A DNA stretch of 64,000 bases, from the IMG/VR virus record IMGVR_UViG_3300044970_002549, positions 1-64,000 of that record. One strand, given 5' to 3'. Below, one piece after another: positions 22,843 through 48,048 of this stretch; the first letter of the stretch is position 1, and each line of letters starts with the position of its first letter. Below the pieces are notes generated by a model. That model was not told the DNA's origin and did no database searches. It saw only the letters and a list, made by a program, of their open reading frames with translations. The DNA comes from a virus. The position numbers and the translations under genes are program-made.

Positions 22843-22889
22843 CGTAGTACGAGCTGGGCGTTTCCCAGTTGGTAGCAGTAAGGAATAAC

Positions 22890-23342
22890 ATGGAATCCAC
22901 AAGGAATCAGGAGATTTACAACGAGTATTTCTCCGGACAAACTCTTCAGGTCGTTGCCGATAAGTACAACCTCACACGGCAGAGGGTTCAGCAAATCGTC
23001 AAGAAGATGGGGCCATCACGCCCACGCATCACAAACGCCGGCCGTCTTCGCAAGTTCGACTACGCGGCCATCGACCAGTATGTCGCCGACAACAAGGCCA
23101 CGGTTCAGGCAACCGCAGCTCACTTCGGATGCTCAATCAGCACCGTGATGAATGCGCTTTATTCGCAGGGAACTTCGCCAGTGAAGAAGCAGCGATTCAC
23201 TTCATTGGTGGTGGACGACATCGTGTCGAGATACCTCGCAGGAGAGAAGCTTCGGCTAATCGGCGAGTCGTACAACACGAGCGCACAGTACATCAACACT
23301 GTGCTACGCCGTGCGGGAGCTACTGCGAAGCGACGGAAGTAA
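22890..23342 (+). CDS. Triple-HTH DNA-binding protein
   Basis: Three HTH-like units: TLQVVADKYNLTRQRVQQI, TVQATAAHFGCSISTV, KLRLIGESYNTSAQYINTVL. Confidence 0.75.
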   Translation: MESTRNQEIYNEYFSGQTLQVVADKYNLTRQRVQQIVKKMGPSRPRITNAGRLRKFDYAAIDQYVADNKATVQATAAHFGCSISTVMNALYSQGTSPVKKQRFTSLVVDDIVSRYLAGEKLRLIGESYNTSAQYINTVLRRAGATAKRRK

Positions 23343-26046: not shown

Positions 26047-26114
26047 GTCCGCAGCTTGATACGGCCTTGCTCGTTTTGTTTAGGTTTCTTATCCTTACCT
26101 TATCATTGGCTTAC

Positions 26115-26144
26115 TTGACAATGTGATACCCCGCACCCCATAAT
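26115..26144 (+). promoter_or_regulatory. Near-consensus sigma70 promoter driving a non-coding transcript
   Basis: TTGACA-18-CATAAT; no RBS-led ORF for about 420 nt downstream. Confidence 0.75.
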
Positions 26145-26150
26145 GAGTCT

Positions 26151-26510
26151 GTTGCCGTTGTGCGTACGCCTTCGGGGACTAGGTGAGTAGAGTTGGAACG
26201 ACGACCGCAGCCGAATAAGTGCGATAAGGTGTTCATGCGAGGTTGGCGAATACCGGAGCTGTAATAACAAAAGTCGCAGTATCGAACGAGTACCGAGCAT
26301 TGGCCAATACCGGTACAGAGGGAGATACGAAACGGCACGATAAGGGTTTAGGGGCGGCCACCGCCGCTTACTAAACAAGGGTCTAGCCGGAAGGTGTAGG
26401 ACTCCGCCGCAAGGTGATAGTCGTGGAGGCCACGGACGGCCAGAGTGGACGACGACTCGGTGGTGGTAAATCGTCTGGGGGGTTGAGCGGTGAAACGCTT
26501 GACTCCCCTT
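26151..26510 (+). ncRNA. Candidate large structured ncRNA (~360 nt), family unknown
   Basis: Own promoter, no ORF, many nested complementary segments, terminal hairpin at 26477-26508. Confidence 0.6.
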
Positions 26511-26527
26511 ACTCTATCTAGTAGGCT
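26499..26527 (+). promoter_or_regulatory. Sigma70-type promoter overlapping the ncRNA 3' hairpin
   Basis: TTGACT-17-TAGGCT, leader hairpin GTCGGGAGTTCCCGAT, AGCACAGGAGG RBS. Confidence 0.65.
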
Positions 26528-26568
26528 TGTGAAGTCGGGAGTTCCCGATTAGTAGCACAGGAGGAAGT

Positions 26569-26748
26569 ATGAACGAGCAGACAACTATCGAACACATTGA
26601 GGAGTGTGAGTCTGAACTCGGCGCACCACACGGCACGCCGAAGCTCCGCACCTACAAGACCGGTTGGAACGGCTATGAGATGGCCTATGAGGAGTCGCTG
26701 TACCTATGCGACGATTGCTATGAAGCGATGAGTCAGGAGGGAGTATGA
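26569..26748 (+). CDS. 59-aa acidic microprotein
   Basis: AGGAGG RBS; MNEQTTIEH...LCDDCY; ATGA overlap with the next gene. Confidence 0.6.
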   Translation: MNEQTTIEHIEECESELGAPHGTPKLRTYKTGWNGYEMAYEESLYLCDDCYEAMSQEGV

Positions 26749-27095
26749 GCAGACAAGACGCGGCCTTCTATACGCACACGCACGACGCAGAGGTTCTGTG
26801 GAGGCCAGAGGGCAGCAACCCAAAGGAAGTGCGCGTGTACCGAAATGGTGAAATGAGAATCAACTACACGGAGCCGTCAGGTGAAGTTGCCGTGCTTCGG
26901 TATACAGATGACCTAGATAGAAAGGGACTTGATACCGACGAGAAGCTGCGCGCAGCAGAGGAGTCTGGCCTGATCGAGTGGATAAATAACGCTTGGTTTG
27001 AGGTCGCGTCGGTTGATAATGAGGACGGAGAGATTGTTGATGGAATAGATGAGGCCATTGAGTATGCCAAGAAACTATTGGAGGAGGAAGTATGA
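26745..27095 (+). CDS. Hypothetical early protein
   Basis: SRQDAAFY...NGEMRI...WINNAWFE. Confidence 0.65.
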   Translation: MSRQDAAFYTHTHDAEVLWRPEGSNPKEVRVYRNGEMRINYTEPSGEVAVLRYTDDLDRKGLDTDEKLRAAEESGLIEWINNAWFEVASVDNEDGEIVDGIDEAIEYAKKLLEEEV

Positions 27096-27230
27096 GTAGG
27101 AACGCTTGTATCTGGTGCGGAACGGAGGTAGAGGACGAGCAGCAGTTTGAGTCATCTATTTGCGCGGAGTGCTATGCTGATGCGGCACACGCTTCGTTGG
27201 CAGAGGAGAGGATTGAGGAGATGAGAGACA

Positions 27231-27458
27231 ATGGCAGCATTTAGTTTCTACGAGTTCACGGAGGAGGAGGTTATCGCCTTCGTTCGCGCTCTGGTGCGCG
27301 GCGGGGACTTTGCTATTGGGCTTTCGTCAGGTGAGGCCATAGAGCGCGCCATAGACATCATTGACGAGCCGCACAAGTGGTCGCGTGAGATGACGGCGTG
27401 GCGAGCTGCCGGCTCACCATACACCTACACCTACATCAAAGAGGGCTTGACGGACTAG
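27231..27458 (+). CDS. Hypothetical early protein
   Basis: ORF track with RBS. Confidence 0.5.
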   Translation: MAAFSFYEFTEEEVIAFVRALVRGGDFAIGLSSGEAIERAIDIIDEPHKWSREMTAWRAAGSPYTYTYIKEGLTD

Positions 27459-27475
27459 TCTGGCGGCTGTAAGGT
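27447..27475 (+). promoter_or_regulatory. Sigma70-type promoter
   Basis: TTGACG-17-TAAGGT; leader hairpin GTCGGGGCTTCCCGAT. Confidence 0.65.
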
Positions 27476-27518
27476 GATGGTGTCGGGGCTTCCCGATAGA
27501 CACAGAGAGGAGTAAGAG

Positions 27519-27761
27519 ATGGACGAAGGGTTTGAGCAATCGGTCGAGATTCCGTTCAGCAAGTTCTATGTTGCGGTAGCGCGCAAGGTTGAGGCCAAGT
27601 GCGGCCTGACCCCTGACGACCTTCCGGACATTGACTTCCGAGCGTTCTATTTGGAGCGCGGTACGATTGAGGAGTACCGAGCAGCAATCGCGGAGTGCGT
27701 GTATGCCGTACTCGAAGGCGCAGGGTATCCCTTCGCTGATGAGGACGAGTACTACGCATGA
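27519..27761 (+). CDS. Hypothetical early protein
   Basis: GAGGAG RBS; GLTPDDLPDIDF. Confidence 0.6.
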   Translation: MDEGFEQSVEIPFSKFYVAVARKVEAKCGLTPDDLPDIDFRAFYLERGTIEEYRAAIAECVYAVLEGAGYPFADEDEYYA

Positions 27762-27979
27762 CTTCGATTTCCCGCAAGAGTGGTCGCTCGTGGAGTCAGT
27801 TCTCCGCTCGTACAAAGGCCGAGTACCTTCGGGAGTCGGCAGCGTGGGAGCGTGAGCAGCGGCGTAGGCTATACATCAAGGGTGCGGTAGTAGTGGTTGC
27901 GTTTGCGGCCTTCGTACTCTTGGTGCTAGGATTCGGCGGCACGAGCGATTTCGTGCCTGATGTGAGAGAGGTGGAGTGA
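27758..27979 (+). CDS. Small membrane protein
   Basis: ATGA overlap; one hydrophobic helix. Confidence 0.55.
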   Translation: MTSISRKSGRSWSQFSARTKAEYLRESAAWEREQRRRLYIKGAVVVVAFAAFVLLVLGFGGTSDFVPDVREVE

Positions 27980-28239
27980 TGAGAGCAGAGGAACTATACG
28001 AGATTGGCGACGCAGGGTATCTGCGCGTGGACTTGCGCGACGATCTTTGGGTTGCGCTGATGACGCAGGACGGAGTGAACTTCGGCGGTACGCTCTGGAG
28101 GGTATCTGATGGTCAGTACTACTCCGAAGGCTGTACGGCAGGGTATCCTGTGTTTTGTTTCGCTATGACTTCGGACGAGGCAGCTCGGCAGGTTGCGCTC
28201 TATATTGCGATGGAGTCGGGAGCCGAGGCTCTGCTGTAA
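27976..28239 (+). CDS. Hypothetical early protein
   Basis: GTGA overlap; GGAG RBS. Confidence 0.55.
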   Translation: MMRAEELYEIGDAGYLRVDLRDDLWVALMTQDGVNFGGTLWRVSDGQYYSEGCTAGYPVFCFAMTSDEAARQVALYIAMESGAEALL

Positions 28240-28242
28240 GAC

Positions 28243-28271
28243 TTGACGCGGCCTATCTGGTCGTTTAGAAT
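28243..28271 (+). promoter_or_regulatory. Sigma70-type promoter (cassette 1)
   Basis: TTGACG-17-TAGAAT; same GTCGGGGCTTCCCGAT leader hairpin as at ~27481. Confidence 0.75.
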
Positions 28272-28315
28272 CGAGGAGTCGGGGCTTCCCGATAAGGCAC
28301 AGCAAGGAGGAGATA

Positions 28316-28738
28316 ATGTCGGAAGCGTTTAGGGTCAATGTGAACGAGCAGGGCGAGTCATGGGTCGAGCGCATCGCATGGGGCGACAAGTCCGGCCTAT
28401 CAGAGCACTACGCGGCGATTGGCTGCGAGCTCGTCCAAGTCGCAGGGTCGGGTGCGTTTGGCGGCGTTCCTGTGATTGTGTTCGTAGATGAGGAAGGCCT
28501 GTATCGTGAGCCTGTCCTGTTCAATCGTGTGGTGTGCGACTTCGTAGCCGAGGCCACCGATTCGGCTCCTGCGTACATGATGGGCGGCGGCCTTGTGGGT
28601 CGTGCGCTTGTCTTGTTTGATAGCGGCAGCGATTCTCGCGGATTCACCAAAGAGGAAGCCGATAGAATCAGCGCGCAGCTCGAACACGGCGGCTATCCTA
28701 CGCTCTCAATGTTCAGGGAGGACGAGCCGCTAGCGTAG
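28316..28738 (+). CDS. DUF3846-like protein
   Basis: IGCELVQV...VFVDEEGL...N...LVGRALV. Confidence 0.65.
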   Translation: MSEAFRVNVNEQGESWVERIAWGDKSGLSEHYAAIGCELVQVAGSGAFGGVPVIVFVDEEGLYREPVLFNRVVCDFVAEATDSAPAYMMGGGLVGRALVLFDSGSDSRGFTKEEADRISAQLEHGGYPTLSMFREDEPLA

Positions 28739-28756
28739 CGCGTCCCTATTGACTAC

Positions 28757-28795
28757 GAGGCCGTCGGTGTCTGTGCCACCGGCGGCCTCACTTTA
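28757..28795 (+). terminator. Intrinsic terminator with GTCTGTGCC loop region
   Basis: GAGGCCGTCGGTG...CACCGGCGGCCTC followed by ACTTT. Confidence 0.7.
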
Positions 28796-28906
28796 TCCGC
28801 TCATCATTATCAGGCCGCTATTATCAGACCCCCTACCATAGCCCCCCCCCCATACCCCACGCCCCATCGCTACCGGTAGGCCGTGCCTCTGGTCGAAACT
28901 GGGGGC

Positions 28907-28935
28907 TTGACGAACGGCACAGGAGGCTCTACCTT
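28907..28935 (+). promoter_or_regulatory. Cassette promoter
   Basis: TTGACG-17-TACCTT. Confidence 0.65.
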
Positions 28936-28982
28936 GTATGAGTTGGCACTTGCTAACAGCACAGGCACAGGAGGAGGAACAG

Positions 28983-29414
28983 ATGAAAGACCTGACGACA
29001 CCAGCGCAGAAGTGGCTGCGGGAGTTTCTCGGAACACAGGCCGTAGGGACTTGCCCTACTTGCCGACAGGCTCTGCCAGAAGGCTCGTGCTTTCGGGCGT
29101 TCGTTCGCTACGGCGACGGCGATGACCTTGTGGCCTACACCAAGACTCGCGGTGAGGCTCTGGCCGTCCTGATCGGTTGGCGCGATGACGAGTGCGGCGA
29201 TTCGTTCTGGGCTGATCGAGCAGACACTTGGAGCACCCTAAGCGTCGCGCAAGCGGTTGCTTTGGAGCACGCACCGGCGGCTCTGATCGTTGCTGCCGAT
29301 GCTGACGAGAAGGTCTACGATGAACTCTTGGCCGCAGTCGAGTATGACTTCATCGGCACACCGCTTGTCGGTGCTGTCTGGGTGGACGACCTTACGGCAT
29401 ACTCCGGCAAGTAG
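28983..29414 (+). CDS. Hypothetical cassette protein
   Basis: GGAGGAGG RBS; CPTC. Confidence 0.65.
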   Translation: MKDLTTPAQKWLREFLGTQAVGTCPTCRQALPEGSCFRAFVRYGDGDDLVAYTKTRGEALAVLIGWRDDECGDSFWADRADTWSTLSVAQAVALEHAPAALIVAADADEKVYDELLAAVEYDFIGTPLVGAVWVDDLTAYSGK

Positions 29415-29431
29415 TCCGCTCGATTTTCTAC

Positions 29432-29470
29432 GAGGCCACTCCCCATCTGTGCGGGGGGTGGCCTCTTTCT
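29432..29470 (+). terminator. Intrinsic terminator with TCTGTGC loop region
   Basis: GAGGCCACTCCCC...GGGGGGTGGCCTC followed by TTTCT. Confidence 0.7.
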
Positions 29471-29603
29471 ATTCCCTGAGCTTTACGCGGTCATCATTAG
29501 GCCGTCATTATGCGCTGGCTATTATGCGACCCCTTACCCCACACCCCGACACCCCAGACCCCAGCGGTCGCGGTGCGCGCTCCGAAACTCCGCAGCGGGG
29601 GGC

Positions 29604-29632
29604 TTGACGCTAGGCCTCGGTGGGTGTACCTT
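29604..29632 (+). promoter_or_regulatory. Cassette promoter
   Basis: TTGACG-17-TACCTT. Confidence 0.65.
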
Positions 29633-29681
29633 CGATGTGTTGGGTGGCTATGCTCCCCCGACTAGCACAGAGGAGAACCAG

Positions 29682-30143
29682 ATGAAGGGGATGACCTACG
29701 AGCAAGCGCGCGAGGTGTGCGCCAAGTTGGGCGGGATGTTCTCCGTCCTGACCGCGTGGTCTGCGCCGACCACCCCGAAGGAGTTCGACCGCCGCAAGGA
29801 GAGCGCGGCGAGCCGTGAGGCCGAGCATCGTCCTATCGGGCGCGTCCAGACGACGGGCGAGCAAGTGGTAGACGACAAGGGGCGCGTTTCCTTTATGTAT
29901 CGAGTATCGGGTCAAGTGAATCGGGACGAGCACCCAGAGGGCGTATACCTGACCAAGAAGGGAGAGCCTTGCGTTGATGTCGTCATCTCCGCTCCAACGG
30001 AGTACGGCTACACGACTGCTTGCAAGTACGCGGGAGTCGTCGGCTCGGCGTGTGAGCGTCGTCGCCCGTTCCACTCCCACCGCACTATCAACCTGACGCG
30101 GCTCGTGTCGTGGATGGTGTCGGGAGAGGAGCAGGTGCGCTAG
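29682..30143 (+). CDS. Hypothetical cassette protein, paralog A (of 34549..35001)
   Basis: GAGGAG RBS; shares long identical blocks with paralog B. Confidence 0.75.
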   Translation: MKGMTYEQAREVCAKLGGMFSVLTAWSAPTTPKEFDRRKESAASREAEHRPIGRVQTTGEQVVDDKGRVSFMYRVSGQVNRDEHPEGVYLTKKGEPCVDVVISAPTEYGYTTACKYAGVVGSACERRRPFHSHRTINLTRLVSWMVSGEEQVR

Positions 30144-30162
30144 GCCTCGCTTCGATTCGACC

Positions 30163-30205
30163 AGAGCACCCCGTCGGGCTTCGGCTTGGCGGGGTGTTCT
30201 ATTGT
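30163..30205 (+). terminator. Intrinsic terminator (cUUCGg loop)
   Basis: AGAGCACCCCGTCGGGC-TTCG-GCTTGGCGGGGTGTTCT. Confidence 0.75.
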
Positions 30206-30423
30206 CCGGTGTTTATCATCACGCCGTCATTACTCGACCCCCTACCCCGTCCCCCCACCCCCCGCTCCCTCATCTCACTCTGTCGTGTCGTTTGATTCTG
30301 TCGAGCTGCTAGTCATCAGGTCATCATCACAGGGCTATTAGGCGACCCCCCATACGACCCCCGCACCCCCCTTACCCCATTGCTGGATCGGTCGAGTGCT
30401 ACCGCTCTGGCTCGTCTTGGCTC

Positions 30424-30452
30424 TTGACGGATTGACCGCTGCCGGCAATACT
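30424..30452 (+). promoter_or_regulatory. Cassette promoter
   Basis: TTGACG-17-AATACT. Confidence 0.6.
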
Positions 30453-30500
30453 CGAAGTGTCGGGCGGCTCTGATCTGCTCGACTAGCACAGGAGGAACCT

Positions 30501-30890
30501 ATGTATAGGTTCATCGTATTCGTAAGGCGCGTGGTTGATGGCGTCGAGGATGCCGTAGGCGACACGCTGACCGCTGCCGGCCCTGACTGGGCGTACGACA
30601 AGACAGAGGCTGTCGCTACCGACGGCGGCTATCCTGAACCGATGGCTCACTCGGTCGCTCGCGGGATGACCCAGGCTGCGTATGCGCTGCTCGGTGGTCT
30701 GGACTTCTTTGTCCAAGAGTACGACGCTGAGGATGTCGCGGCAGGGTCGCTGACCCCAGAGGATAAGGAGATGGCGGCGGCTATCTCACTCGGCCTCCTC
30801 CCATCTGACGGATCGGTAGCCTTCGTCTCTGGTCTGGTCAATCGAGCAGACGCCAAGCCCTTCTGGTTCGTGGTCGCGGTTCACGACTAG
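30501..30890 (+). CDS. Acidic hypothetical cassette protein
   Basis: TAGCACAGGAGG RBS. Confidence 0.7.
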   Translation: MYRFIVFVRRVVDGVEDAVGDTLTAAGPDWAYDKTEAVATDGGYPEPMAHSVARGMTQAAYALLGGLDFFVQEYDAEDVAAGSLTPEDKEMAAAISLGLLPSDGSVAFVSGLVNRADAKPFWFVVAVHD

Positions 30891-30910
30891 CCGTACCGGT
30901 TGCGGTCATC

Positions 30911-30950
30911 GAATCCGTCTCACCCTTCGGGGTGGGGCGGATTCTTTTAT
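30911..30950 (+). terminator. Intrinsic terminator (cUUCGg loop)
   Basis: GAATCCGTCTCACCC-TTCG-GGGTGGGGCGGATTC-TTTT. Confidence 0.8.
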
Positions 30951-31062
30951 GCCGTCATTATCAGCGCGCTATTATGCGACCCCTAGCACCCCTGACCCCG
31001 CTCCCCCTTACCCCTTACGCTCTGGCGTGTCGCATGTCTGGCGCGCAGCTCGGCTGCTGCTA

Positions 31063-31092
31063 TTGACTTGACCGCGCCCGGCCGTATAGACT
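31063..31092 (+). promoter_or_regulatory. Cassette promoter
   Basis: TTGACT-18-TAGACT. Confidence 0.65.
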
Positions 31093-31143
31093 CATGGAAG
31101 TCGAGGGAGTAGGCACAGACCCCTCTCGGCACAGGAGGTCAAG

Positions 31144-31485
31144 ATGACCGAGCAAAAGAAGGCGACCCTCTGGGTTGTCGAGGTGGTATGGAACGGCGAG
31201 CCTCATCGTTCGTTCTATGAGGATCGGGAGGAGGCAATCGCTGGGCTGGTGAGCCTAGCGGACTTTCTGGCTGACTTCACCAGAACCAACAAGACAGGCA
31301 GGGCAACCAATCGGGACTTGGAGACCGCTACGGAGTTTCTGCTAGATGATGACCGCTCGTCATGGGTTGATTGTTTGGAGATTACCGAGTCTGGCATTTG
31401 CCCAAGGTGCGAGGCGATGGTCGGCTGGTCTGGCGGCTACTGCGAGCCGTGCGGCTACGAGTTCGGGAATCAACTGAACGACTAA
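31144..31485 (+). CDS. Cassette protein with C-terminal zinc ribbon
   Basis: CPRC...CEPCGY; AGGAGG RBS. Confidence 0.7.
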   Translation: MTEQKKATLWVVEVVWNGEPHRSFYEDREEAIAGLVSLADFLADFTRTNKTGRATNRDLETATEFLLDDDRSSWVDCLEITESGICPRCEAMVGWSGGYCEPCGYEFGNQLND

Positions 31486-31507
31486 CGCGGCCGGGCGAAG
31501 GCAACAG

Positions 31508-31540
31508 GAAGCCGTCCCCTTCGGGGGGCGGTTTTTTGTT
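31508..31540 (+). terminator. Intrinsic terminator (cUUCGg loop)
   Basis: AAGCCGTCCCC-TTCG-GGGGGCGGTTTTTT. Confidence 0.8.
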
Positions 31541-31752
31541 AGTCCTATTAGGTCATCACATCACCCCCTACCCCAGCCCCCCCTTACCCCTAGAATCTCA
31601 CGGCTTCCGATACGGCCGGTCGGAGTCAATAGTCGCAGCTCATCATTAGTCATCATCATCACGCTATTACTTGACCCCCCATACCCCAGCGAGTCCGTTT
31701 CCCCTTGCCCCATCTGGTCGTTGCGTCTGGTGCGCCATCTGCTAGGTGGGGC

Positions 31753-31781
31753 TTGACGTTGCCCGCACTTCGAACTAGTCT
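31753..31781 (+). promoter_or_regulatory. Cassette promoter
   Basis: TTGACG-17-TAGTCT. Confidence 0.65.
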
Positions 31782-31829
31782 GGTGAGGTCGCAGGCTGGC
31801 ACAGACCCGAAGCGACACAGGAGGTCTAG

Positions 31830-32324
31830 ATGTTCACGGAAACGAACGCAGATCGGCTCGTCGAGGTACGGGCAGCAATCAAGACAGCGATGGACTCCCT
31901 CACCGAGAAGGAGTTCGCCGCAGCAGCAGAGAGCAACACGGAAGCCGGTGGTGCTAGCCACCTCGTCGTCGTCCCTGCTGCTTTCTGGAATGACCACACC
32001 AGCCGCGACCTTGACTCGGTTTCGGTCGAGGTGCGGTCATCAAGCGCGGAGTGGGGACTCTATGATGACGGCTCCTATGTCGTCCTGATGATGACTGACG
32101 ACTCGCTCGCCGAGTTGGTGTCTGACTCAGCGTACTACTCCACTTCGTTTGATGAGGAGGACTACGGCTCACTCATGGAGTCGGCACGCCGTACCTTTCT
32201 CGCCTTGATGATCCAGTCGTCGGCTGCGCGTAGCCTGTTGGACTCGCGCACTTCCTACGACAACCTGCGCTGGGCGTTGGGCTTGGAGCGAACCGATGCC
32301 GCAATCATCACTGGTGCGGCATGA
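31830..32324 (+). CDS. Hypothetical cassette protein
   Basis: AGGAGG RBS; VPAAFWNDH.SRDL...ELVSDSAYY...SARRT. Confidence 0.7.
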   Translation: MFTETNADRLVEVRAAIKTAMDSLTEKEFAAAAESNTEAGGASHLVVVPAAFWNDHTSRDLDSVSVEVRSSSAEWGLYDDGSYVVLMMTDDSLAELVSDSAYYSTSFDEEDYGSLMESARRTFLALMIQSSAARSLLDSRTSYDNLRWALGLERTDAAIITGAA

Positions 32325-32551
32325 CTGCCGATGACCGCACTTCGACCTGCTCCGATTGCGAGCAGGTGCTAGGAGACTCGGCATGGTACGCCGACAACAA
32401 CGGCGGACTCGGGCTGCTGATGTATTGCGACGGCTGCGAGGAGCGAAGGTCTGAACGCTATGGTTGCGCTCTCATCATCGCGGAGGGTTGCGGCTGCGTT
32501 CCGAGTGGTGCCGATTGCGCCTGTGGTTGCGGGGGTTCTGGGCAACTCTGA
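32321..32551 (+). CDS. Cys-rich microprotein
   Basis: ATGA overlap; CSDC, CDGC, CACGC. Confidence 0.55.
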   Translation: MTADDRTSTCSDCEQVLGDSAWYADNNGGLGLLMYCDGCEERRSERYGCALIIAEGCGCVPSGADCACGCGGSGQL

Positions 32552-32578
32552 ACCGCTGACCGCACTTCGACCTAGACT

Positions 32579-32614
32579 CGCCCTCACTCTTTCGGGAGTG
32601 GGGGCGGTTCTTTT
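32579..32614 (+). terminator. Intrinsic terminator (UUCG loop)
   Basis: CGCCCTCACTCT-TTCG-GGAGTGGGGGCG-GTTCTTTT. Confidence 0.75.
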
Positions 32615-32910
32615 CCCCGGGGTTTAGATAGGGCCATCATCAGGCAACGCCTACCCCGACCCCCCACCCCATTCGTCAGGCTTGTTTATCAGGTCGTTCA
32701 TCGGGGGTGTGCTGATACCCCCTAGCCCCAGTTCGTCGCTCTCCGTCGTTCCTACGGGGTCGTTTTTCTGGCGCGCAGCTGCGACCACGCTCACTCACCT
32801 CATTATCGAGCCACAGTCATCAGGTCATCATTGATCCCCTATACCCCACCAGCCATACACCGCCCCCCTTCCCCCCTTGCCCCTTTGGCGTTGCGTCTGG
32901 TGCGACCCCC

Positions 32911-32939
32911 TTGTATTGCGGCCGTGCCTGTTGTACCTT
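32911..32939 (+). promoter_or_regulatory. Cassette promoter
   Basis: TTGTAT-17-TACCTT; GTCGG..CCGAC leader plus TAGCACAGGAGG. Confidence 0.55.
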
Positions 32940-32988
32940 TCAGATGTCGGGAGGCAAATGACCTGCCGACTAGCACAGGAGGTCAGAG

Positions 32989-33342
32989 ATGACCAAGGAA
33001 GAACTGATCCAGCTACTTCGGGAGAAGCCCGACGCAATGCGAGCCCTGAACGGCGACGGCCATGGGCTCTACGCGCCAGAGTGGTACACCGAGGTCGGCT
33101 GGCCTTCGGAGATGATCAGCCGGCTCAATGTCGTCCATACCAGCGACGGCACGACGAAGGGCTCCATGTGGGATCACGAAGGCAACATCATCGCGGAACA
33201 GCGAGCTGTGTATTCGCTGGACTTCCATGAGGCCGTTGCCAGCATCGTCGGCACCACCGCGCATCACAGCATGTTCGGTCGGGGTTCGGCCGCACGCGCC
33301 ATCGCCATCGAGGTCAGGGCAATCGTGGAGGTTGGAGCATGA
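32989..33342 (+). CDS. Hypothetical cassette protein
   Basis: AGGAGG RBS; DGHGLY...HTSDGT.KG...FGRGSAAR. Confidence 0.7.
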   Translation: MTKEELIQLLREKPDAMRALNGDGHGLYAPEWYTEVGWPSEMISRLNVVHTSDGTTKGSMWDHEGNIIAEQRAVYSLDFHEAVASIVGTTAHHSMFGRGSAARAIAIEVRAIVEVGA

Positions 33343-33447
33343 TGGAACTCATCGGTGAGGCAATCAGCGTTGCGACCTTCCTAGTGGCCGTGATTCTGTT
33401 CTTGGGTTGGAACTCAATGGTCTAGCCCAGTCCAGCTCGGAGAATCC

Positions 33448-33485
33448 GATGACCCCTCTGCCTTCGGGTAGGGGGGTCATCATTT
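33448..33485 (+). terminator. Intrinsic terminator (cUUCGg loop)
   Basis: GATGACCCCTCTGCC-TTCG-GGTAGGGGGGTCATC. Confidence 0.7.
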
Positions 33486-33617
33486 ATGGCTATTCATCAG
33501 GTCATCATTATCAGGTCATAGTGCGACCCCTTACCCCATAGTCCGTGCCGTTCCCCTTGCCCCTGTCTGCTACTGGTTCTTGGGCAGCTGCGATCTGTTG
33601 CGCCTGGTGCGTAGTGC

Positions 33618-33646
33618 TTGCGCTTTTTGGTTGATGTGTTTAGACT
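33618..33646 (+). promoter_or_regulatory. Cassette promoter
   Basis: TTGCGC-17-TAGACT. Confidence 0.6.
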
Positions 33647-33691
33647 CTAACTATCGGCGGCAATGCTTCGCTGATAGCACAGGAGGAAACT

Positions 33692-34204
33692 ATGAACGGC
33701 AAGGGCAAAACCGGCGCACAGGCAGCAGTCGCACGAGCCGAGGCGTTGGCTCGGTATCCAGAGAATCCAACGGCGGTGATGATCCGACCGATTGAGAGCC
33801 TCTATGGTCAAGTGTTCGCGGAGCCGACGAGCGCGATGCTCTCGGTCTTTCTTGCGCCTCGCGTTGAGATCGCATTGGAGCAGGGCGACCTCTGGCGGCA
33901 GCCTGTGAGGGTTGTACGCAAGGTGAACGAGTCAGAGATGACCTTCACCGCCGTCCTCATCGGTAGGGCAGCGCCAGAGAACGAGGCGATCCTCTGGCAG
34001 GGTGGCAACGCCCCAATGATGGGGTGGCTCCCTCTGGACGTCGCAGACTTCGCTGATGATCACGATGTGGCGTGGTGGATCGCGTCCTGCTACGACGCTT
34101 CTAGCGGGGACGCTTATGCGCTCCATCGTCAGGCAGTCCGCAACATCACCACGAAGGCACGCGCCGCCTACGAAGCGCAGAACGGAGAGTCCGCTCCCTT
34201 CTGA
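33692..34204 (+). CDS. Hypothetical cassette protein
   Basis: TAGCACAGGAGG RBS. Confidence 0.7.
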   Translation: MNGKGKTGAQAAVARAEALARYPENPTAVMIRPIESLYGQVFAEPTSAMLSVFLAPRVEIALEQGDLWRQPVRVVRKVNESEMTFTAVLIGRAAPENEAILWQGGNAPMMGWLPLDVADFADDHDVAWWIASCYDASSGDAYALHRQAVRNITTKARAAYEAQNGESAPF

Positions 34205-34227
34205 TCAAGTCCGGCGACAGGGCAACG

Positions 34228-34260
34228 GAGCCGATCCCTTCGGGGGTCGGCTCTTTTGTT
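34228..34260 (+). terminator. Intrinsic terminator (cUUCGg loop)
   Basis: GAGCCGATCCC-TTCG-GGGGTCGGCTC-TTTTG. Confidence 0.8.
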
Positions 34261-34548
34261 AGTTCATCATCAGTTCATCATCAGAGGCCAGTCGCACCCC
34301 TTACCCCTAGCCCCGAGTCTTGGCTCGGTCTGATCGAAGCGTGGGCAATCGTCGCAGCTTACGCGGTTATCATTAGGTCAGTCATTACTCATGAGCCAGT
34401 AGGCGACCCCTCTACCCCTTACCCCTCTGGATAGGGCGAGTCCGGCGCAAGGGCAACCCGCACCGCCTACCCCTTGCGCTGCCCTGTTCTGTGGTAGGCT
34501 TTGGTTGTCGGGGGAAGGCACAGACCCGAACCGACAAAGGAGGAAACG

Positions 34549-35001
34549 ATGAAGGCAGGTATGACCTTCGCAGCCGCAAGGGCGGCAGCAGCAAAGAGCG
34601 GCGGTATGTTCGTCGTTCTTACTGGGTGGAGCGCGCCGACCACGGACAAATGCCGGGAGAAGCGACGCGAAGCGGCAGCAGGGCGAGCCGCCGAACACCG
34701 CGCCATCGGGCGCGTGAAGGTGGAAGCCACAGCCGAGAACGGCGTGGTGCTGTTCCGCGTTGCGGGTCAGGTGAACCGCGACCAGTACCCAGAAGGCGTG
34801 TACCTCAACAAGAAAGGCGAGCCTTGCGTTGGCATCGTCATCGGAGCCCCGACCGAGTACGGCTACACGACCGCGTGTCCGTATGCAGGGAAGGCAGGAA
34901 GCGCATGCGAGAACCGCAGACCCTTCCACGCGCACCGCACCATCAACCTCACGCGCCTAGTGGCGTGGGAGATTGCAGGAGAGCAGCAGCCCCTCGGCTG
35001 A
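34549..35001 (+). CDS. Hypothetical cassette protein, paralog B (of 29682..30143)
   Basis: AAAGGAGG RBS; GGMF.VLT.WSAPTT, GQVNRD..PEGVYL.KKGEPCV, APTEYGYTTAC, RRPFH.HRTINLTRLV shared with paralog A. Confidence 0.75.
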   Translation: MKAGMTFAAARAAAAKSGGMFVVLTGWSAPTTDKCREKRREAAAGRAAEHRAIGRVKVEATAENGVVLFRVAGQVNRDQYPEGVYLNKKGEPCVGIVIGAPTEYGYTTACPYAGKAGSACENRRPFHAHRTINLTRLVAWEIAGEQQPLG

Positions 35002-35020
35002 CCGCCCGCCAGATTTTGTA

Positions 35021-35063
35021 GAGAGCGCACCCTCCGCCCTTCGGGGTGGGGGGTGTTCTCTTT
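35021..35063 (+). terminator. Intrinsic terminator ending the early region
   Basis: GAGAGCGCACCCTCCGCCC-TTCG-GGGTGGGGGGTGTTCTC-TTT. Confidence 0.75.
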
Positions 35064-35267
35064 GTCTGGCCAGCAGTACGGCGTGCCATTACCCGCTCAT
35101 CGATTTACCCCAACCCCTCGCATAGAACAGATGACCCCCCCTACCCATGCGCGCGCTACGTGCAAATCAACATTTGACCAATCTGTGGCGATTACCCCTC
35201 AACCCCTCTTCCTGCAATAAAAAAGCCCAGGCACATGGCCTAGGCGCTAATTTTTTTTTACAGAAAA

Positions 35268-35756
35268 TTATCTACGAGCGAGCGAGATACGGCGACAGGC
35301 TCTGCACTCTCTCCGGCCCCGTGGAGACCGGTAGGTGTTCTCGTCGGTCCATTCATGTCCCTTGCTGCAATGCGTGATACGCCCAGCAGCTGCAAGACCG
35401 CGGAGTATGTTTATTCTGCACGTCACAGGCTCAAGGTGTTTTGTATTGACACACTTTCGCACCCTACATAGGTGGTCAAGGTGTAATCCCCTGGCAATAG
35501 GCCCAACCTCATAGAGATACGCCCATCGGTGTGCAAGGACCTTCTTCCCTTGGTGTTTGAATCCACCGTATCCCCTTGAGTCAATCGTACCGGTCCATTC
35601 ATGGCACCCTGTGGTCTCATTCACATACACAAAAGTTCGGAAACGTACCGCGACTTTTTCTTCCACTACGGGCTGACAGATGCGACCATCGGTGTGGGGG
35701 GCCGCCGCGCGCCCGTAGGCACCCCTAGGAGCGACGGAGAGGCGTGATTCTGGCAC
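35268..35756 (-). CDS. HNH homing-type endonuclease
   Basis: CHEWTG...GYG...AHRWAY...LDHLCRVRKCVNTKHLEPVT..N; THCSKGHE...RECRAC. Confidence 0.88.
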   Translation of the reverse strand: MPESRLSVAPRGAYGRAAAPHTDGRICQPVVEEKVAVRFRTFVYVNETTGCHEWTGTIDSRGYGGFKHQGKKVLAHRWAYLYEVGPIARGLHLDHLCRVRKCVNTKHLEPVTCRINILRGLAAAGRITHCSKGHEWTDENTYRSPRGRRECRACRRISLARR

Positions 35757-35763
35757 CTTGGGG

Positions 35764-36162
35764 TCAGAGGGCCTTAGAGGCCTTTGCCATAGCTGTTACG
35801 GGGTCTGGGTTGATGGAACGGAGGAACTGTCGCTCAGAAACAGCTTCTGGGTCAAGCATCATCCTACGGAGAAGGTCTTCTGCCGTCAGGAAGCCTGCAA
35901 ATGCCTTTGGTGAACCGTTGGCAATAGAGGTGTAGAGAACGTAGGGAACGCTCTTGATGCCGTACTCCTGCACGATAGCAGGGTTCTCATCCACATTTAC
36001 CTTGATAACGGTAACGTCTTTTCGGAATGACGCGATTTTCTCGAGCTCTGCACTGATCGCAACACATGGCTTGCACCATGGAGCCCAAAAATCAACGATA
36101 GTTGGCCCTTTCGACAGTGCAGTTGTGATCTCTTGTGATGTGACGGGGGTTGACTGGGCCAT
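35764..36162 (-). CDS. Thioredoxin
   Basis: IVDFWAPWCKPC, KVNVDENP, YGIKSVP; AAGGAG RBS at the 36162 start. Confidence 0.9.
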   Translation of the reverse strand: MAQSTPVTSQEITTALSKGPTIVDFWAPWCKPCVAISAELEKIASFRKDVTVIKVNVDENPAIVQEYGIKSVPYVLYTSIANGSPKAFAGFLTAEDLLRRMMLDPEAVSERQFLRSINPDPVTAMAKASKAL

Positions 36163-36235: not shown

Positions 36236-36460
36236 TCAGTTGACGTCGCGTGACGCAATGATTCGGGGTGCCTTCATCGATGGTATATCTTCCACCGGCT
36301 CTCCAATTTTTTCCGCAATTTTCGCCATTGTGTTGACGAGTTCGGAAAGCACCGGTAACACTTTACGCAGCATCGTTTCTCGCTCTGCGCTTTGTTCCAT
36401 TTCTTGTACTGCTTTTAAATCGTCAGCAATCTGCTGCAAATCGTAGTTCTTCATCAACAT
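36236..36460 (-). CDS. Hypothetical protein
   Basis: TAATG-coupled to ssb. Confidence 0.55.
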   Translation of the reverse strand: MLMKNYDLQQIADDLKAVQEMEQSAERETMLRKVLPVLSELVNTMAKIAEKIGEPVEDIPSMKAPRIIASRDVN

Positions 36461-36843
36461 TAGAACGGAAGCTCTTCAAGCGACTGCTGCATCTCTGCGC
36501 GTGAGGAGGTTTCACCCTCACCCTGCTTCTTTGAGCGGCTAAGCACCTGAATGTACTTTGCGGTGATGGAGATTTCCGTGTGCTCCACATCGTTCTTGTC
36601 CGTCCACGAGCTGATTTCCGGCGTTCCCTCGATCCAAATAAGGTCGCCCTTCTGGACAATCTTATCGGCAAGCTCTGCACGACCATCCCAACAAGTAATC
36701 GGATACCACGTCGACTTCTCTTCACCATTCGCATCCTTTGTGCCATGGACGGCGACGTTGAAATTCGCCACTGGACGGCCCTTTGCCGTAGAGCGGACGA
36801 CGGGACGAGCACCAACATAACCAATCAACTGTACCTTAATCAT
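36460..36843 (-). CDS. ssb: Single-stranded DNA-binding protein
   Basis: VQLIGYVGARP, VANFNVA, W...W, KGDLIWIEG, acidic ELPF tail. Confidence 0.93.
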   Translation of the reverse strand: MIKVQLIGYVGARPVVRSTAKGRPVANFNVAVHGTKDANGEEKSTWYPITCWDGRAELADKIVQKGDLIWIEGTPEISSWTDKNDVEHTEISITAKYIQVLSRSKKQGEGETSSRAEMQQSLEELPF

Positions 36844-37210
36844 CTTCTTCTACCTCACTAATCCTAAGTACGATCTTTTCTTCATCGCACTTTTTCTTCA
36901 GGGTCCATACACGGGGCATGAACCTTGCATCATTCACTCCGATACCCAGCGCAATCGCGTCAAGTGTCAGTTTTAATATGTTGTCTGCGTCGATTGAACG
37001 CTTCACGTAAATCCACACATCAACCACGAGCATTGTATCACTGTCGCATGCCCATTGCTGTTCCGCCTTTGCGGCTCCGGCCATGACCGAGACGATCTTC
37101 TTCCACTGTTTTGCCTCCCTTGTCATGTAGATGTACGATTTTCGCGCCCGATACGCGGCATTCCAGCTTGGCGGACGGCCGTTGATCGTTAATTCGAGCG
37201 CGGACGACAC
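36836..37210 (-). CDS. rusA: RusA-like Holliday junction resolvase
   Basis: PPSWN, DADNILKLTLDAI, NDARF. Confidence 0.85.
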   Translation of the reverse strand: MSSALELTINGRPPSWNAAYRARKSYIYMTREAKQWKKIVSVMAGAAKAEQQWACDSDTMLVVDVWIYVKRSIDADNILKLTLDAIALGIGVNDARFMPRVWTLKKKCDEEKIVLRISEVEEDD

Positions 37211-37906: not shown

Positions 37907-38195
37907 ACTGATCGTAGTCCTCCTTGCGGCTACTTACTTCGTCAGACCACTTTCTGGTCATTGAGAGCTTCTTTACATACGCAAACGGGTCACCGCTCAC
38001 ATCACGGATTGCCGCTTCGCAGATTGCAGACATCAGGGCCGGGATTCCGCCAGGAAATGCAGCCATGAGCTGCGCAATTCGCCCATAATCGGTGCGTTTC
38101 ATTGGTTTTCCGGTTACCGCAGTGAAGAAGTCTCCGATTCTGCCCTGTCGGTTGCCCGACTGCTCAACATCGACGCGCCACTGCGCCAGCGTCAT
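37890..38195 (-). CDS. Small putative replication-initiator (DnaD-like) protein
   Basis: Directly upstream of the DnaC-like gene; DPFAYVKKL..W motif. Confidence 0.45.
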   Translation of the reverse strand: MTLAQWRVDVEQSGNRQGRIGDFFTAVTGKPMKRTDYGRIAQLMAAFPGGIPALMSAICEAAIRDVSGDPFAYVKKLSMTRKWSDEVSSRKEDYDQYVERE

Positions 38196-39073
38196 CGTAC
38201 TAGCTTGTCCAACGTGCTGTTCCTGATTCCCGGCAGAACTTCTAACATCTTTTTCTTTGTTTCTGGTAGCTTTTGTGGGTGCGACTCCCATTGGTTGCAC
38301 AGCCTCCTATACTCACACGACGAGTGCACAAATGCCGTAGGATTTGGATAGATCGCGCCCTTTTCGCGCGCGTCCAAGATTGCCCTAACGGTAATGTACA
38401 GCTGGTCGATATCATCCTGCGTTCGCGTTGTTACGCGACGCTCCACATTCGGCCCCTTTGAGTGCTTAGAGATGATGTTGAACGTCACCTTCGGGTCGTG
38501 ACCGTGATTCTGTCGAATCGCATTCACATAAGCGGTGGCCTGTGCATCTCCATGCTCTCGGCCAGCCTCCCACTTTCGGTCCGCCGTCTTGTGCTCGACT
38601 ACATCGTTCTCTTTTGTCACCATGTCCAGCACCGACTTGAGCTTGATCGGCAGTTTGCCGAGCCTGCTGTGTTCGATGTCGGCCATGAAGGTCCGCTCAA
38701 CCGCGCTTGCCGTCCAGTCATCACCTTCCAGCAGTGCGGCCTTCAACATATCCTCGCCCAACGCGCTTTCGCTAATCGGATTCTTGTCCTTTTCCTGCGT
38801 CCAGTCGATTGTGGCCGACTCCTTGGCGTAGGTGGACTTAAATGCGTCGATTGCTGGGGTAAGGTCGCCAATTTGCTTGCCGCCGCCAAAGGGCTCGTAC
38901 CAGCTGGCAAGTCCAGCATGGACTGACGTACCGAGAGCAAAAAAGCTCGTCTGCTTGTCGGTCCAGAGGCCCATGCCATACCGGTACCACCAGCGCAGCG
39001 GACACGCCATAAACTCGCGGATCTCGCTGACGCTGATGTGCTTCTTTTCGAGCGTGCTATCTGGTATCTGCAT
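38192..39073 (-). CDS. PD-(D/E)xK exonuclease (RecB/Cas4-like)
   Basis: ISVSEI..CPLRWWY, GTSVH, VE, LDMV..VVEHKT, QATAY, CEYRRLC. Confidence 0.88.
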   Translation of the reverse strand: MQIPDSTLEKKHISVSEIREFMACPLRWWYRYGMGLWTDKQTSFFALGTSVHAGLASWYEPFGGGKQIGDLTPAIDAFKSTYAKESATIDWTQEKDKNPISESALGEDMLKAALLEGDDWTASAVERTFMADIEHSRLGKLPIKLKSVLDMVTKENDVVEHKTADRKWEAGREHGDAQATAYVNAIRQNHGHDPKVTFNIISKHSKGPNVERRVTTRTQDDIDQLYITVRAILDAREKGAIYPNPTAFVHSSCEYRRLCNQWESHPQKLPETKKKMLEVLPGIRNSTLDKLVR

Positions 39074-39681
39074 TAGGAGAAGTCAGCTTTTCGGGTGTTA
39101 TAGAACACCGCAAGCCACTTCTTTGCATCAGCCCCAAGCTTCGATGACGCAATCTGTTGCGCAACCGTATTGAGGTCGGTGATCGATGCGGCACCGTTGA
39201 TGGCCTCTCGCCAATCGACAAGCTCGTCTGTTGGCTCAAAGACTTCCGCTGCTGCGCGGAGCACCTCTTCGTCTGCAATCTTCTGCGATTCGCGCTTTGC
39301 AACAACGTCTCCGCCCTTTGAGCGAATCTCATCGTTTGACGCAACCTTCTTTGATGGAAGGCCTGCCATTACGAGCGCGCGGCCCACAGCCGACGTCTCG
39401 CAGTTCTCGATTTCAGAACCCCGCGTGTATGGCGTAGCGCCCGGAATCTGCATGGCGCTGTGGCCAATGCCTGCTGGACGATCGTCCACAAAGCCAAGCC
39501 TTTCGTCAAGCCCGTTGTCTTCCTTGACGCCGCGATAGGCTCGCGCCTCAATGACCACGCGCTTCTCCGTGTGCTCAAGAAGCCGCGTTTCGATTCTGCC
39601 GTTTGGGTACGCTTCGTACCATGCCCGGATGCGCTCTGCGACATCAACGTAATCCTTAAGTGCGCTCTTGTCGAATGCCAT
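39073..39681 (-). CDS. Single-strand annealing protein (Sak/Rad52-like)
   Basis: YVDVAERI..YPNGRIET...ENCETSAVGRAL..G..AS.DE; adjacent to the exonuclease. Confidence 0.7.
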   Translation of the reverse strand: MAFDKSALKDYVDVAERIRAWYEAYPNGRIETRLLEHTEKRVVIEARAYRGVKEDNGLDERLGFVDDRPAGIGHSAMQIPGATPYTRGSEIENCETSAVGRALVMAGLPSKKVASNDEIRSKGGDVVAKRESQKIADEEVLRAAAEVFEPTDELVDWREAINGAASITDLNTVAQQIASSKLGADAKKWLAVFYNTRKADFS

Positions 39682-47988: not shown

Positions 47989-48010
47989 GCGATTCGTTCG
48001 TAGGTTTTGT

Positions 48011-48048
48011 GAAGGGGGGCGGGGGAAACCTCGCTCCCCTTTGCTTTT
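48011..48048 (+). terminator. Intrinsic terminator after capsid gene
   Basis: GAAGGGGGGCGGGG-GAAA-CCTCGCTCCCCTTT-GCTTTT. Confidence 0.7.

Follow-up and report, generated by a model that had tools for sequence, protein, structure and literature searches.

The first 64,000 nucleotides (nt) of a phage genome from the IMG/VR database (record IMGVR_UViG_3300044970_002549; 91,157 bp, complete according to CheckV), hereafter the window, contain an array of nine small expression cassettes, c1 to c9, which are separated by a conserved bipartite repeat and are exchanged as units among related phages. The array region analyzed here occupies positions 28240–35150, about 7 kb. A preliminary description of the sequence had proposed nine units, each composed of a promoter, a 5′ hairpin, a leader with a GCACAG box, one or two open reading frames (ORFs), and an intrinsic terminator followed by one to three copies of the repeat. 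All nine units are present at the proposed positions with this build and this number of repeat copies, and the non-coding share, given as about 40%, was measured as 39.5% of the array stretch. The repeat consists of (TCATCA/CTATTA)n with an 11-nt period, referred to here as the TCAT block, and (ACCCC)n with a 7–8-nt period, referred to as the C-box. For comparison, 22 related loci were retrieved from IMG/VR with the c3 protein; the clade that carries the repeat consists of lake phages.

All cassettes are encoded on the plus strand. Cassette c1 begins with promoter TTGACG-17-TAGAAT, the 5′ hairpin and a GCACAG..GGAGG leader (28243–28315), continues with an ORF of 140 residues that has a weak match to DUF3846 and is replaced by another allele in a strain of about 99% identity (28316–28738), and ends with a terminator (28757–28789), a TCAT block (28801–28812), and a C-box (28827–28866). 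Cassette c2 (28907–29414) contains a promoter (28907–28935), a leader, and an orphan ORF of 143 residues (28983–29414); its 3′ region (29432–29563) is formed by a terminator (29432–29465), a TCAT block (29491–29520), and a C-box with five C4 tracts (29528–29562). Cassette c3 (29604–30143) has its promoter at 29604–29632, followed by a leader and an ORF of 153 residues that is a paralog of c9 (29682–30143); the c3 terminator is followed by two repeat copies, TCAT 30213–30232 with C-box 30236–30263 and TCAT 30313–30326 with C-box 30344–30378 (whole region 30165–30378). In c4 (30424–30890), the promoter (30424–30452) and leader precede an orphan ORF of 129 residues (30501–30890), and the 3′ region (30911–31050) comprises the terminator (30911–30944), TCAT block (30955–30974), C-box (30978–31014), and the block TCTGGCGCGCAGCT at 31037. 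Cassette c5 (31063–31485) consists of a promoter (31063–31092), a leader, and an ORF of 113 residues whose C-terminal part resembles a zinc ribbon below the cut-off (31144–31485). Its 3′ region (31503–31734) contains the terminator (31503–31540), repeat copies at 31545–31590 and 31640–31687, CCCCTTGCCCC at 31701, and TTGCGTCTGGTGCG at 31721.

Two ORFs are present in c6 (31753–32551), which has its promoter at 31753–31781, a leader, c6a (31830–32324, 164 residues), and the cysteine-rich c6b (32321–32551, 76 residues). The c6 terminator (32578–32607) is followed by three repeat copies with C-boxes at 32654–32670, 32718–32729, and 32836–32883, and this region (32578–32904) includes the left direct repeat of the c7 indel described below. 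Cassette c7 (32911–33425) likewise carries two ORFs behind its promoter (32911–32939) and leader, c7a (32989–33342, 117 residues) and the hydrophobic c7b (33342–33425, 27 residues). Its 3′ region (33448–33611) contains the terminator (33448–33481), a TCAT block (33494–33513), C-boxes at 33525–33537 and 33553–33563, and TTGCGCCTGGTGCG at 33598, and includes the right direct repeat of the c7 indel. In c8 (33618–34204), a promoter (33618–33646) and leader are followed by an orphan ORF of 170 residues (33692–34204); behind the terminator (34227–34254) lie two to three repeat copies, TCAT 34264–34280 with C-box 34295–34314, TCAT 34367–34387 with C-box 34405–34425, and ACCCC at 34465–34473 (whole region 34227–34473). 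Cassette c9 (34474–35001) has a weaker promoter, TTGCGC-15-TAGGCT (34474–34500), with a 15-nt spacer, a leader, and the c3 paralog of 150 residues (34549–35001); the c9 terminator (35027–35056) is followed by a degenerate trailing repeat copy (whole region 35027–35148), beyond which there is no promoter but only a convergent terminator. The cassette proteins have no Pfam or PHROG family match above threshold and no usable match in the ESM Atlas.

The nine upstream regions can be aligned and share the grammar CTTGACG-N17-TAnnnT, about 6 nt, GTCGG..hairpin..CCGAC, TAGCACAGGAGG, N5-6, and ATG. The distance from the −10 element to the ATG is 44–51 nt in eight cassettes, and the consensus of the GCACAG-type leader is GCACAGGAGG. 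The predicted folds place a hairpin at the putative 5′ end of the mRNA and leave the Shine-Dalgarno (SD) sequence free in all nine leaders. Single z-scores of the hairpins are modest (−2.5 to +0.6), as expected for GC-rich RNA of about 45 nt; the case for the hairpin comes from the same stem being kept at the same position by different sequences. The hairpin and a GCACAG(A)GGAG leader were found throughout the clade. Homogenization of the leaders within each genome was considered and ruled out, because the GCACAG box is conserved across the clade. The sequence immediately before the −35 element is a G-run or a C-run and is not AT-rich; the AT-richer TCAT block lies tens to more than 100 nt further 5′, with the C-box in between. 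Additional shared blocks that had been reported before some of the promoters were located at the same positions, on the plus strand only: CCCCTTGCCCC at 31701, 32873, and 33553, TTGCGYCTGGTGCG at 31721, 32891, and 33598, and TCTGGCGCGCAGCT at 31037 and 32767.

Terminator-like sites are about four times more numerous than in shuffled sequences (21 found, 5.1 expected). A UUCG loop is present in seven of the nine cassette terminators, which were correctly described as mostly UUCG-capped. The loops of the two other terminators, those of c1 and c2 (28770–28778 and 29445–29453), hold UCUGUGC, the exact complement of the leader GCACAG box, and the c2-type loop is retained clade-wide.

The bipartite repeat belongs to the 3′ part of the cassette, with its onset a few bases to about 50 nt (median) past the terminator; no copy precedes the c1 promoter. 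A scan for GACCCCYTACCCC with at most two mismatches gave 20 matches, compared with 1.8 ± 1.2 in shuffles, and 16 of them are located at 28.8–34.5 kb, all on the plus strand. With at most one mismatch, there was no match outside the array in the 91,157-bp genome, in agreement with the expected confinement of the repeat to this region. Composition and spacing were evaluated on 83 non-redundant terminators from the window and the 22 related loci. Between +30 and +90 past these terminators, C amounts to 44–49% and G to 11–17%. The starts of consecutive C-tracts are spaced by 7 nt in 140 cases and by 8 nt in 70. In the first half, the YYATYA units recur at intervals of 11 nt (48 cases) or overlap with a spacing of 3 nt. 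The base before the C-tract is A in 67% of cases, compared with 37% in the rest of the genome, and the commonest linkers are ATA, TTA, and ACA. GTCGCAGCT, a degenerate terminator flank, stands before the second and third copies of a spacer. In relatives, GTCGCAGCT sits directly after terminator T-tracts, and the multi-copy spacers therefore look like remains of lost cassettes. The layout of the repeat 3′ of terminators is present in all 22 related loci; the distant ones contain a highly uniform CCCCCCATACCCCC box, and the G-free tract of relatives runs on into (CT)n and (TCAT)n. When IMG/VR was scanned for CTATTA..ACCCCYWACCCC, only single chance matches were found outside the clade.

The flanks of the array are syntenic in all 22 related loci, with the RadC-like u5 and the small-gene operon u4–u0 upstream and the genes d1–d5 downstream, which encode HNH, thioredoxin, single-stranded DNA-binding (SSB), and RusA proteins and a DnaC-like loader in constant order. 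Between these flanks, cassettes have been gained, lost, duplicated, and reordered. The window has the order c1 c2 c3 c4 c5 c6 c7 c8 c9, whereas locus L013 has c1 c3 c2 c6a c3 c4 c5 c8 c3, L014 has c3 c1 c2 c3 c5 c4 c6a .. c3, and L025 has c1 c2 c3 c8 c5 .. c6a c3. The order c4-c5 is thus swapped to c5-c4 between loci, and c8 has been relocated. The c3 family is the most widespread, with one to three copies in each locus that spans the array, while c7a is a singleton of the window that is absent from all 22 related loci. The cysteine-rich c6b is part of the c6 cassette in the window and in L008; most relatives have it about 5 kb further upstream, in front of the RadC-like u5, which indicates that single genes also move between the array and the conserved block. 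Protein identity to the closest locus, L008, is mosaic: 95–97% for c2, c4, c6b, and c8, 56% for c5, and 40% for c1. The content and order of genes therefore vary among relatives, and, as detailed below, breakpoints fall in the repeat. This is the opposite of the fixed order that the preliminary description had named as counting against its proposal of a modular cassette system, and the proposal is supported.

Individual exchanges can be traced to the spacer blocks. In the comparison with L008, homology to the left of the c7 indel ends at 32836 and homology to the right restarts at 33494; both ends map to L008 13206–13224, within the repeat, so that two direct repeat copies surround c7 in the window and one is present in L008. 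Locus L014 contains an extra cassette of 705 nt relative to L016 (92–98% identical), and the overlap at the joint is a 19-nt C-box, ACCCCnnACCCCnnACCCC. In L017 and L019 (97–98% identical), two cassettes are swapped, with a C-box at every joint; the upstream gene has taken along the terminator and TCAT block, and the downstream gene the promoter region. Because a raw count of the ends of all high-scoring segment pairs was too noisy, clean structural junctions were screened. Eight unique clean junctions were found, four in a C-box, two in the G-run/−35 block, one in the terminator flank/TCAT block, and one outside the array. Population variants were read from contigs of the strain of about 99% identity (run X5). 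In this strain, 402 other letters replace the c1 ORF, from a left end within the leader hairpin (28293) to a right end shortly before the terminator (28753); an extra 11-nt TCAT unit is inserted after 28801, and a 56-nt deletion (32661→32718) lies between two C-boxes. The longest exact blocks common to different spacers of the window measure 12–17 nt and are mostly within the repeat. Exchange thus occurs wherever spacers share sequence, and the C-box is used most often. The repeats do serve as recombination joints, as had been suggested, but not exclusively: the use of the −35 block, the leader hairpin, and the terminator flank points to homology-driven exchange rather than to a dedicated site-specific system.

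The preference for the C-box raises the question of whether it stimulates exchange. A programmed recombination signal, in which a G-quadruplex (G4) on the template strand or nicking by the HNH protein stalls replication and starts exchange at cassette borders, is in our view unlikely, although several observations are in its favor. The array holds 10 of the 13 highest-ranking G4Hunter blocks of the genome, each of these 10 with a score of at least 2 and with its G residues on the template strand, and it holds seven of the nine motifs with four C-tracts. These seven sites match the intramolecular G4 motif, defined as at least four runs of three or more G with short loops on one strand. The C-box is the commonest crossover site, and the HNH gene d1 (35268–35756, minus strand) borders the array in every related locus that reaches its right edge. 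A G4 at pilE of Neisseria is known to start exchange (PMC3547852), and a similar role has been proposed for vls of Borrelia (PMC3585125). These loci share with the array strongly strand-biased G-runs at a site of cassette exchange. They differ from it in that bacterial gene conversion acts on one expression site, whereas whole expression units are exchanged in the phage, and the G-rich strand of pilE is the non-template strand, opposite to the orientation found here. Moreover, 40% of the 191 non-redundant C-box arrays of the clade contain only two tracts and cannot fold alone, other conserved blocks serve as joints too, and G4 folding in the array is a prediction from sequence motifs. The stronger proposal that the C-box is a dedicated, strand-polarized signal feeding a Rad52-like annealase and an exonuclease, which would amount functionally to an integron built from replication stalling and single-strand annealing and would give integrase-free, site-preferring exchange, appears equally unlikely.

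Candidate enzymes for the exchange are encoded next to the array on the opposite strand (38192–39681). The exonuclease postulated in the preliminary description was recovered as a Cas4-like protein of the PD-(D/E)xK type (38192–39073, minus strand). Directly upstream of it lies a gene for a 202-residue protein (39076–39681, minus strand), which has no Pfam, NCBIfam, or named PHROG match; the Pfam models of Rad52, RecT, and ERF in particular do not match it. Its predicted structure (pLDDT 68) has an αβββα core, and the Foldseek neighbors of the model are almost all annealases of the Rad52 superfamily, including Mgm101 (probability 0.99), human RAD52, and Sak of phage 80alpha. The fold and the position directly upstream of the exonuclease suggest that the protein is likely a divergent single-strand annealing protein. 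The earlier designation as a Sak-like annealase thus has moderate support from the fold but none from the Pfam annealase families. Genes for an SSB protein (36460–36843), RusA (36836–37210), and the DnaC-like loader adjoin the array on the same strand as these enzymes. No match to tyrosine or serine recombinases (PF00589, PF00239) was found across the 91-kb genome, and the joint is a direct repeat unlike the attC inverted repeat, in line with the reported absence of an integrase and of attC.

Based on the cassette turnover between syntenic flanks, the mosaic identity, and the crossovers inside the blocks, all of which are observed, a mechanism can be proposed. We consider it probable that the array is a hyperplastic early region of the host-takeover type, composed of autonomous insulated units whose spacer blocks act as recombination linkers, and that it represents the mechanism of promoter–stem-loop (PeSL) cassettes in an unrelated phage. 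The nine units would be independent transcription units read by the host RNA polymerase. A σ70-type promoter is predicted to start each transcript, the hairpin at the 5′ end of the mRNA is probably protective, the unstructured GCACAGGAGG leader may constitute a strong ribosome-binding site, and a putative intrinsic terminator would close each unit. The conserved intergenic blocks would act as portable homology patches of 12–26 nt, of which the heptad C-box (ACCCCnn)n is the most used. Recombination between patches, within one genome or between co-infecting relatives, could delete, insert, duplicate, or transpose whole units and leave their neighbors undisturbed. The exchange is probably performed by the annealase/exonuclease/SSB/RusA module of the phage and may proceed through a circular intermediate. 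Expression of the array is presumably early.

The linker function is compatible with a further role of the repeat, and our best guess, made without conviction, is that of a 3′ insulator: the C-rich, G-poor tract of 60 nt behind a weak-tailed terminator would load Rho on read-through RNA. The G-rich template strand might also stall polymerases and thereby raise local recombination. The repeat could even be primarily a Rho-dependent backup terminator, a Rho utilization (rut) site that insulates the cassettes, with recombination as a by-product of the repetition; we regard this as possible, but hold it only tentatively. It agrees with the constant location of the repeat on the sense strand, behind terminators with an interrupted U-tract, with the G-depleted, C-rich zone of about 60 nt, and with the presence of a copy behind the last cassette, beyond which there is no further promoter. 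Scored with the RUT criterion of RhoTermPredict, a 78-nt window with C/G > 1 and regularly spaced C (PMC6407284), all nine spacers pass; their C/G ratio is 2.1–5.4, and C is regularly spaced in seven of the nine. The extension of the G-free tract by (CT)n and (TCAT)n in relatives suggests a compositional constraint, and intrinsic and Rho-dependent termination are known to cooperate (bioRxiv 10.1101/2022.07.21.500918). The spacers resemble Rho-backed terminators in having a C-rich, G-poor stretch of 60–80 nt with spaced cytosines right after an inefficient-looking hairpin, and differ from them in being a sequence-conserved heptad repeat that recurs at least 14 times in one phage clade. Rho requires neither the heptad period nor the A before the C-tracts, and the enrichment of G4Hunter blocks in the array is sharper than that of the C/G ratio, windows with C/G of at least 3 being found elsewhere in the genome as well. 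The single clear late terminator on the strand of the array (48009–48044) is not accompanied by the repeat, which would be unexpected if the repeat were a backup terminator of general use.

The proteins of the c3/c9 family (29682–30143 and 34549–35001) provide a lead in the same direction. Their structure was predicted with confidence (pLDDT 81.5) and had no match in Foldseek. An exhaustive structural comparison with VIA-align suggests a small Sm-like barrel, with the Rho inhibitor YaeO/Rof as the closest structure (Z 6.8) and Hfq proteins next. The likeness is intriguing because the spacers resemble Rho loading sites. It has no support at the sequence level, and in this range of Z perhaps only the fold is common, so that a Rho-inhibitor-like function is a lead only.

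The repeat could alternatively be bound by a protein. That TCAT blocks and C-boxes form arrays of binding sites for a clade-specific protein, which shuts off or protects the early region, seems rather improbable to us. The 11-nt period of the TCAT block is close to one helical turn, the ACCCC core is constrained across diverged sub-clades, and the motif is absent outside the clade; candidate binders are a Mor-like/σ70 region 4-like helix-turn-helix (HTH) protein (22869–23342) and the tape measure protein, which accompanies the DNA into the cell, through its ParB-like N-terminus. However, no protein could be assigned to the motif, the number of units turns over fast, and the 7–8-nt period of the C-tracts is unlike a face of the duplex. 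With a distance to the next −35 element that ranges from 0 to about 54 nt, the repeat does not qualify as an operator or activator site of the classical kind, and a function as UP or activator element was rejected for the same reason. A second promoter was rejected too, because distant relatives have not retained the −10-like CTATTAT and because the last cassette is followed by a copy too. Loading of proteins on the first-injected DNA, suggested in the preliminary description, found no supporting evidence, and the array is in the middle of the record, 25 kb from the terminase gene. Stoperators of Cluster A mycobacteriophages are asymmetric sites of 13–14 bp bound by the immunity repressor of a temperate phage. 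In contrast to their genome-wide distribution, the sites described here are in one region, and they belong to a phage without integrase in which no repressor was identified.

A lack of any function is the least probable of the explanations considered. The repeats would then be slippage-prone simple sequence, scars of past exchanges that hitch-hike with terminators. The copy number of units indeed differs between near-identical strains, and the spacers with two or three copies, with their GTCGCAGCT flanks, look like leftovers of lost cassettes. The strict strand polarity, the fixed order of terminator, TCAT block, and C-box, and the retention of this arrangement across sub-clades in which shared cassette proteins are only about 56% identical speak against neutral scars.

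Several points weigh against the proposed early region of insulated, recombination-linked units with a Rho-type insulator. The clean junctions are few (n = 8), and some of them share a common ancestry. The promoters, the terminators, and the early timing are predictions from sequence. The assignment of the annealase relies on Foldseek E-values of 0.03 at best and on a model with the limited pLDDT given above. The Rho dependence of the insulator is presumed, and the repeat-free late terminator and the C/G-rich windows outside the array argue against it. Furthermore, the C-box is constrained beyond its composition, which hints at a specific recognition that is covered neither by homology nor by rut composition.

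In its function the array resembles a PeSL region, whereas its sequence places it outside the PeSL family; its new part is the C-rich joint. PeSL elements are composites of a terminator and an early promoter in T4-type myoviruses (Arbiol et al. 2010, PMC2839356; Comeau et al. 2014, PMC4122927). The comparison with them in the preliminary description, as analogous but distinct in sequence, is apt, and its presentation of the array as an undescribed system was overstated, since the principle has been described for T4-type phages in these studies. Both systems have a stem-loop terminator and a σ70-like promoter with an SD sequence between orphan genes, in nine units here, and both form a hyperplastic region of non-essential ORFans between conserved blocks, represented here by the variable array between syntenic flanks of the 22 loci. 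In both, close relatives differ by insertion, deletion, or replacement of whole units with crossovers inside the unit, short homology suffices without an integrase, and each cassette is transcriptionally isolated. The differences begin with the lineage, as the array belongs to a lake siphovirus of about 91 kb and has no sequence similarity to the PeSL consensus. An additional strand-specific bipartite repeat between terminator and promoter is the preferred joint, a G-run takes the place of the AT-rich UP region before the −35 element of PeSL, and a conserved 5′ hairpin and GCACAG box are present. PeSL mini-circles arise by exchange between flanking units (PMC2839356, PMC4122927), whereas the array is known from contigs alone.

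The leader resembles the start-associated sequences (SAS) and extended SAS (ESAS) of Cluster K mycobacteriophages, which have the consensus 5′-GGGATAGGAGCCC located 3–7 bp before the start codon, with or without a 17-bp inverted repeat (Pope et al. 2011, PMC3203893). Both are asymmetric, SD-containing motifs near the start codon, often after an inverted repeat (the box described here is 5–7 nt before the ATG), and both occur in a single orientation, only in the non-structural part of the genome, and before unrelated genes. The consensus differs (GGGATAGGAGCCC compared with GCACAGGAGG), SAS genes are not individually framed by a promoter and terminator, and no cassette shuffling has been described at SAS.

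Integron cassettes are mobile single-gene units in one orientation with a recombination site at the 3′ end, from which they can be excised and re-inserted in another order. The array shares with them the single-gene mobile units in one orientation and the joint at the 3′ end of the cassette. It differs in the absence of an IntI-type recombinase from the 91-kb genome, in the joint, a direct heptad repeat instead of the imperfect inverted repeat of attC, and in the promoter and terminator of every cassette, as integron cassettes are promoterless.

Regions of this kind hold most of the fast-evolving phage genes of unassigned role, often connected with host takeover or counter-defence. The array indicates that the PeSL principle, in which regulatory units act as recombination linkers, is not peculiar to T4-type phages and operates in an unrelated clade of uncultured lake siphoviruses. 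It is unusually readable: a 19-nt heptad repeat marks the site of a crossover between genomes of 97–98% identity, and a single natural population contains variants. Should the C-rich, G4-prone joint prove to stimulate exchange actively, nature would have provided a simple tool for targeted gene shuffling; should it load Rho as an insulator, its design would be that of a compact and portable terminator. Under both readings, the spacers may offer ready-made parts (promoter, stabilizing leader, terminator, and insulator) for a freshwater host that probably has a higher GC content.

Genes for the large terminase, portal, head protease, major capsid protein, and head-tail adaptor were recognized in the record. 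A tape-measure domain in an open frame of over 3000 residues identifies the phage as a long-tailed siphovirus; an N4-like reading of this giant ORF was ruled out, as it is the tape measure protein. The large terminase is at most about 26% identical to that of any cultured phage, the major capsid protein had no tblastn match, and a megablast search of the array against 50,697 phage records returned no matches. DNA of the phage is present in lake-water metagenomes. No integrase, resolvase, phage RNA polymerase, or sigma factor was found in the 91-kb genome, and the phage is therefore probably virulent and relies on the host polymerase. Among the clues to the host, WhiB was not found, HIP1 was not enriched, and an auxiliary epimerase is only 46–47% identical to proteins of Saprospiraceae metagenome-assembled genomes and points to no host.

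The GC content of the array is 59–64%, compared with 51–56% in the flanks, in all relatives examined (window 28000–36000; L008, L011, L013, L014, L021, and L022). The excess persists at third codon positions (GC3), with 0.66–0.79 in the cassettes compared with 0.53–0.61 in the replication and packaging genes; the capsid gene has a similarly high GC3 of 0.69. Strongly expressed genes may have adapted their codons to a host of higher GC content, which would explain the high GC3, and a recombination-associated GC bias is a possible alternative cause.

Some features surrounding the array are constant among the relatives. A tenth promoter and leader with the same grammar (26497–26567, plus strand), TTGACT-17-TAGGCT followed by GTCGGGAGTTCCCGAT TAGTAGCACAGGAGG and including the hairpin and the GCACAGGAGG leader, precedes the u-block (26497–28239 with the promoter). 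It is predicted to drive a polycistronic operon of seven to eight small genes, the order of which is identical in all 22 related loci, unlike that of the adjoining array. At the right border, the HNH_3 endonuclease gene d1 has 50–76% identity among the relatives; its presence in every relative that extends that far indicates a stable component rather than a roaming homing gene. The Mor-like/σ70 region 4-like HTH protein is encoded in the same rightward block as the array and is a candidate for the factor that switches expression away from the early cassettes.

A near-consensus promoter, TTGACA-18-CATAAT with ACCCCGCACCCC in its spacer, lies within 26105–26510; downstream of it, about 360 nt that lack an obvious ORF and are enclosed by two hairpins represent a candidate non-coding RNA. 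An Rfam scan that included this candidate gave no match near the gathering score. Its function as a guide RNA pairing with the repeats was rejected, as the duplex energies equal those of shuffles except for one unit. The long contigs of L013, L025, and L026 end within the array or next to it, and breaks at the repeats were seen in the contigs of three lake metagenomes (X3, X4, and X6). The array is a hotspot of assembly fragmentation, probably owing to its repeats and to strain microdiversity.

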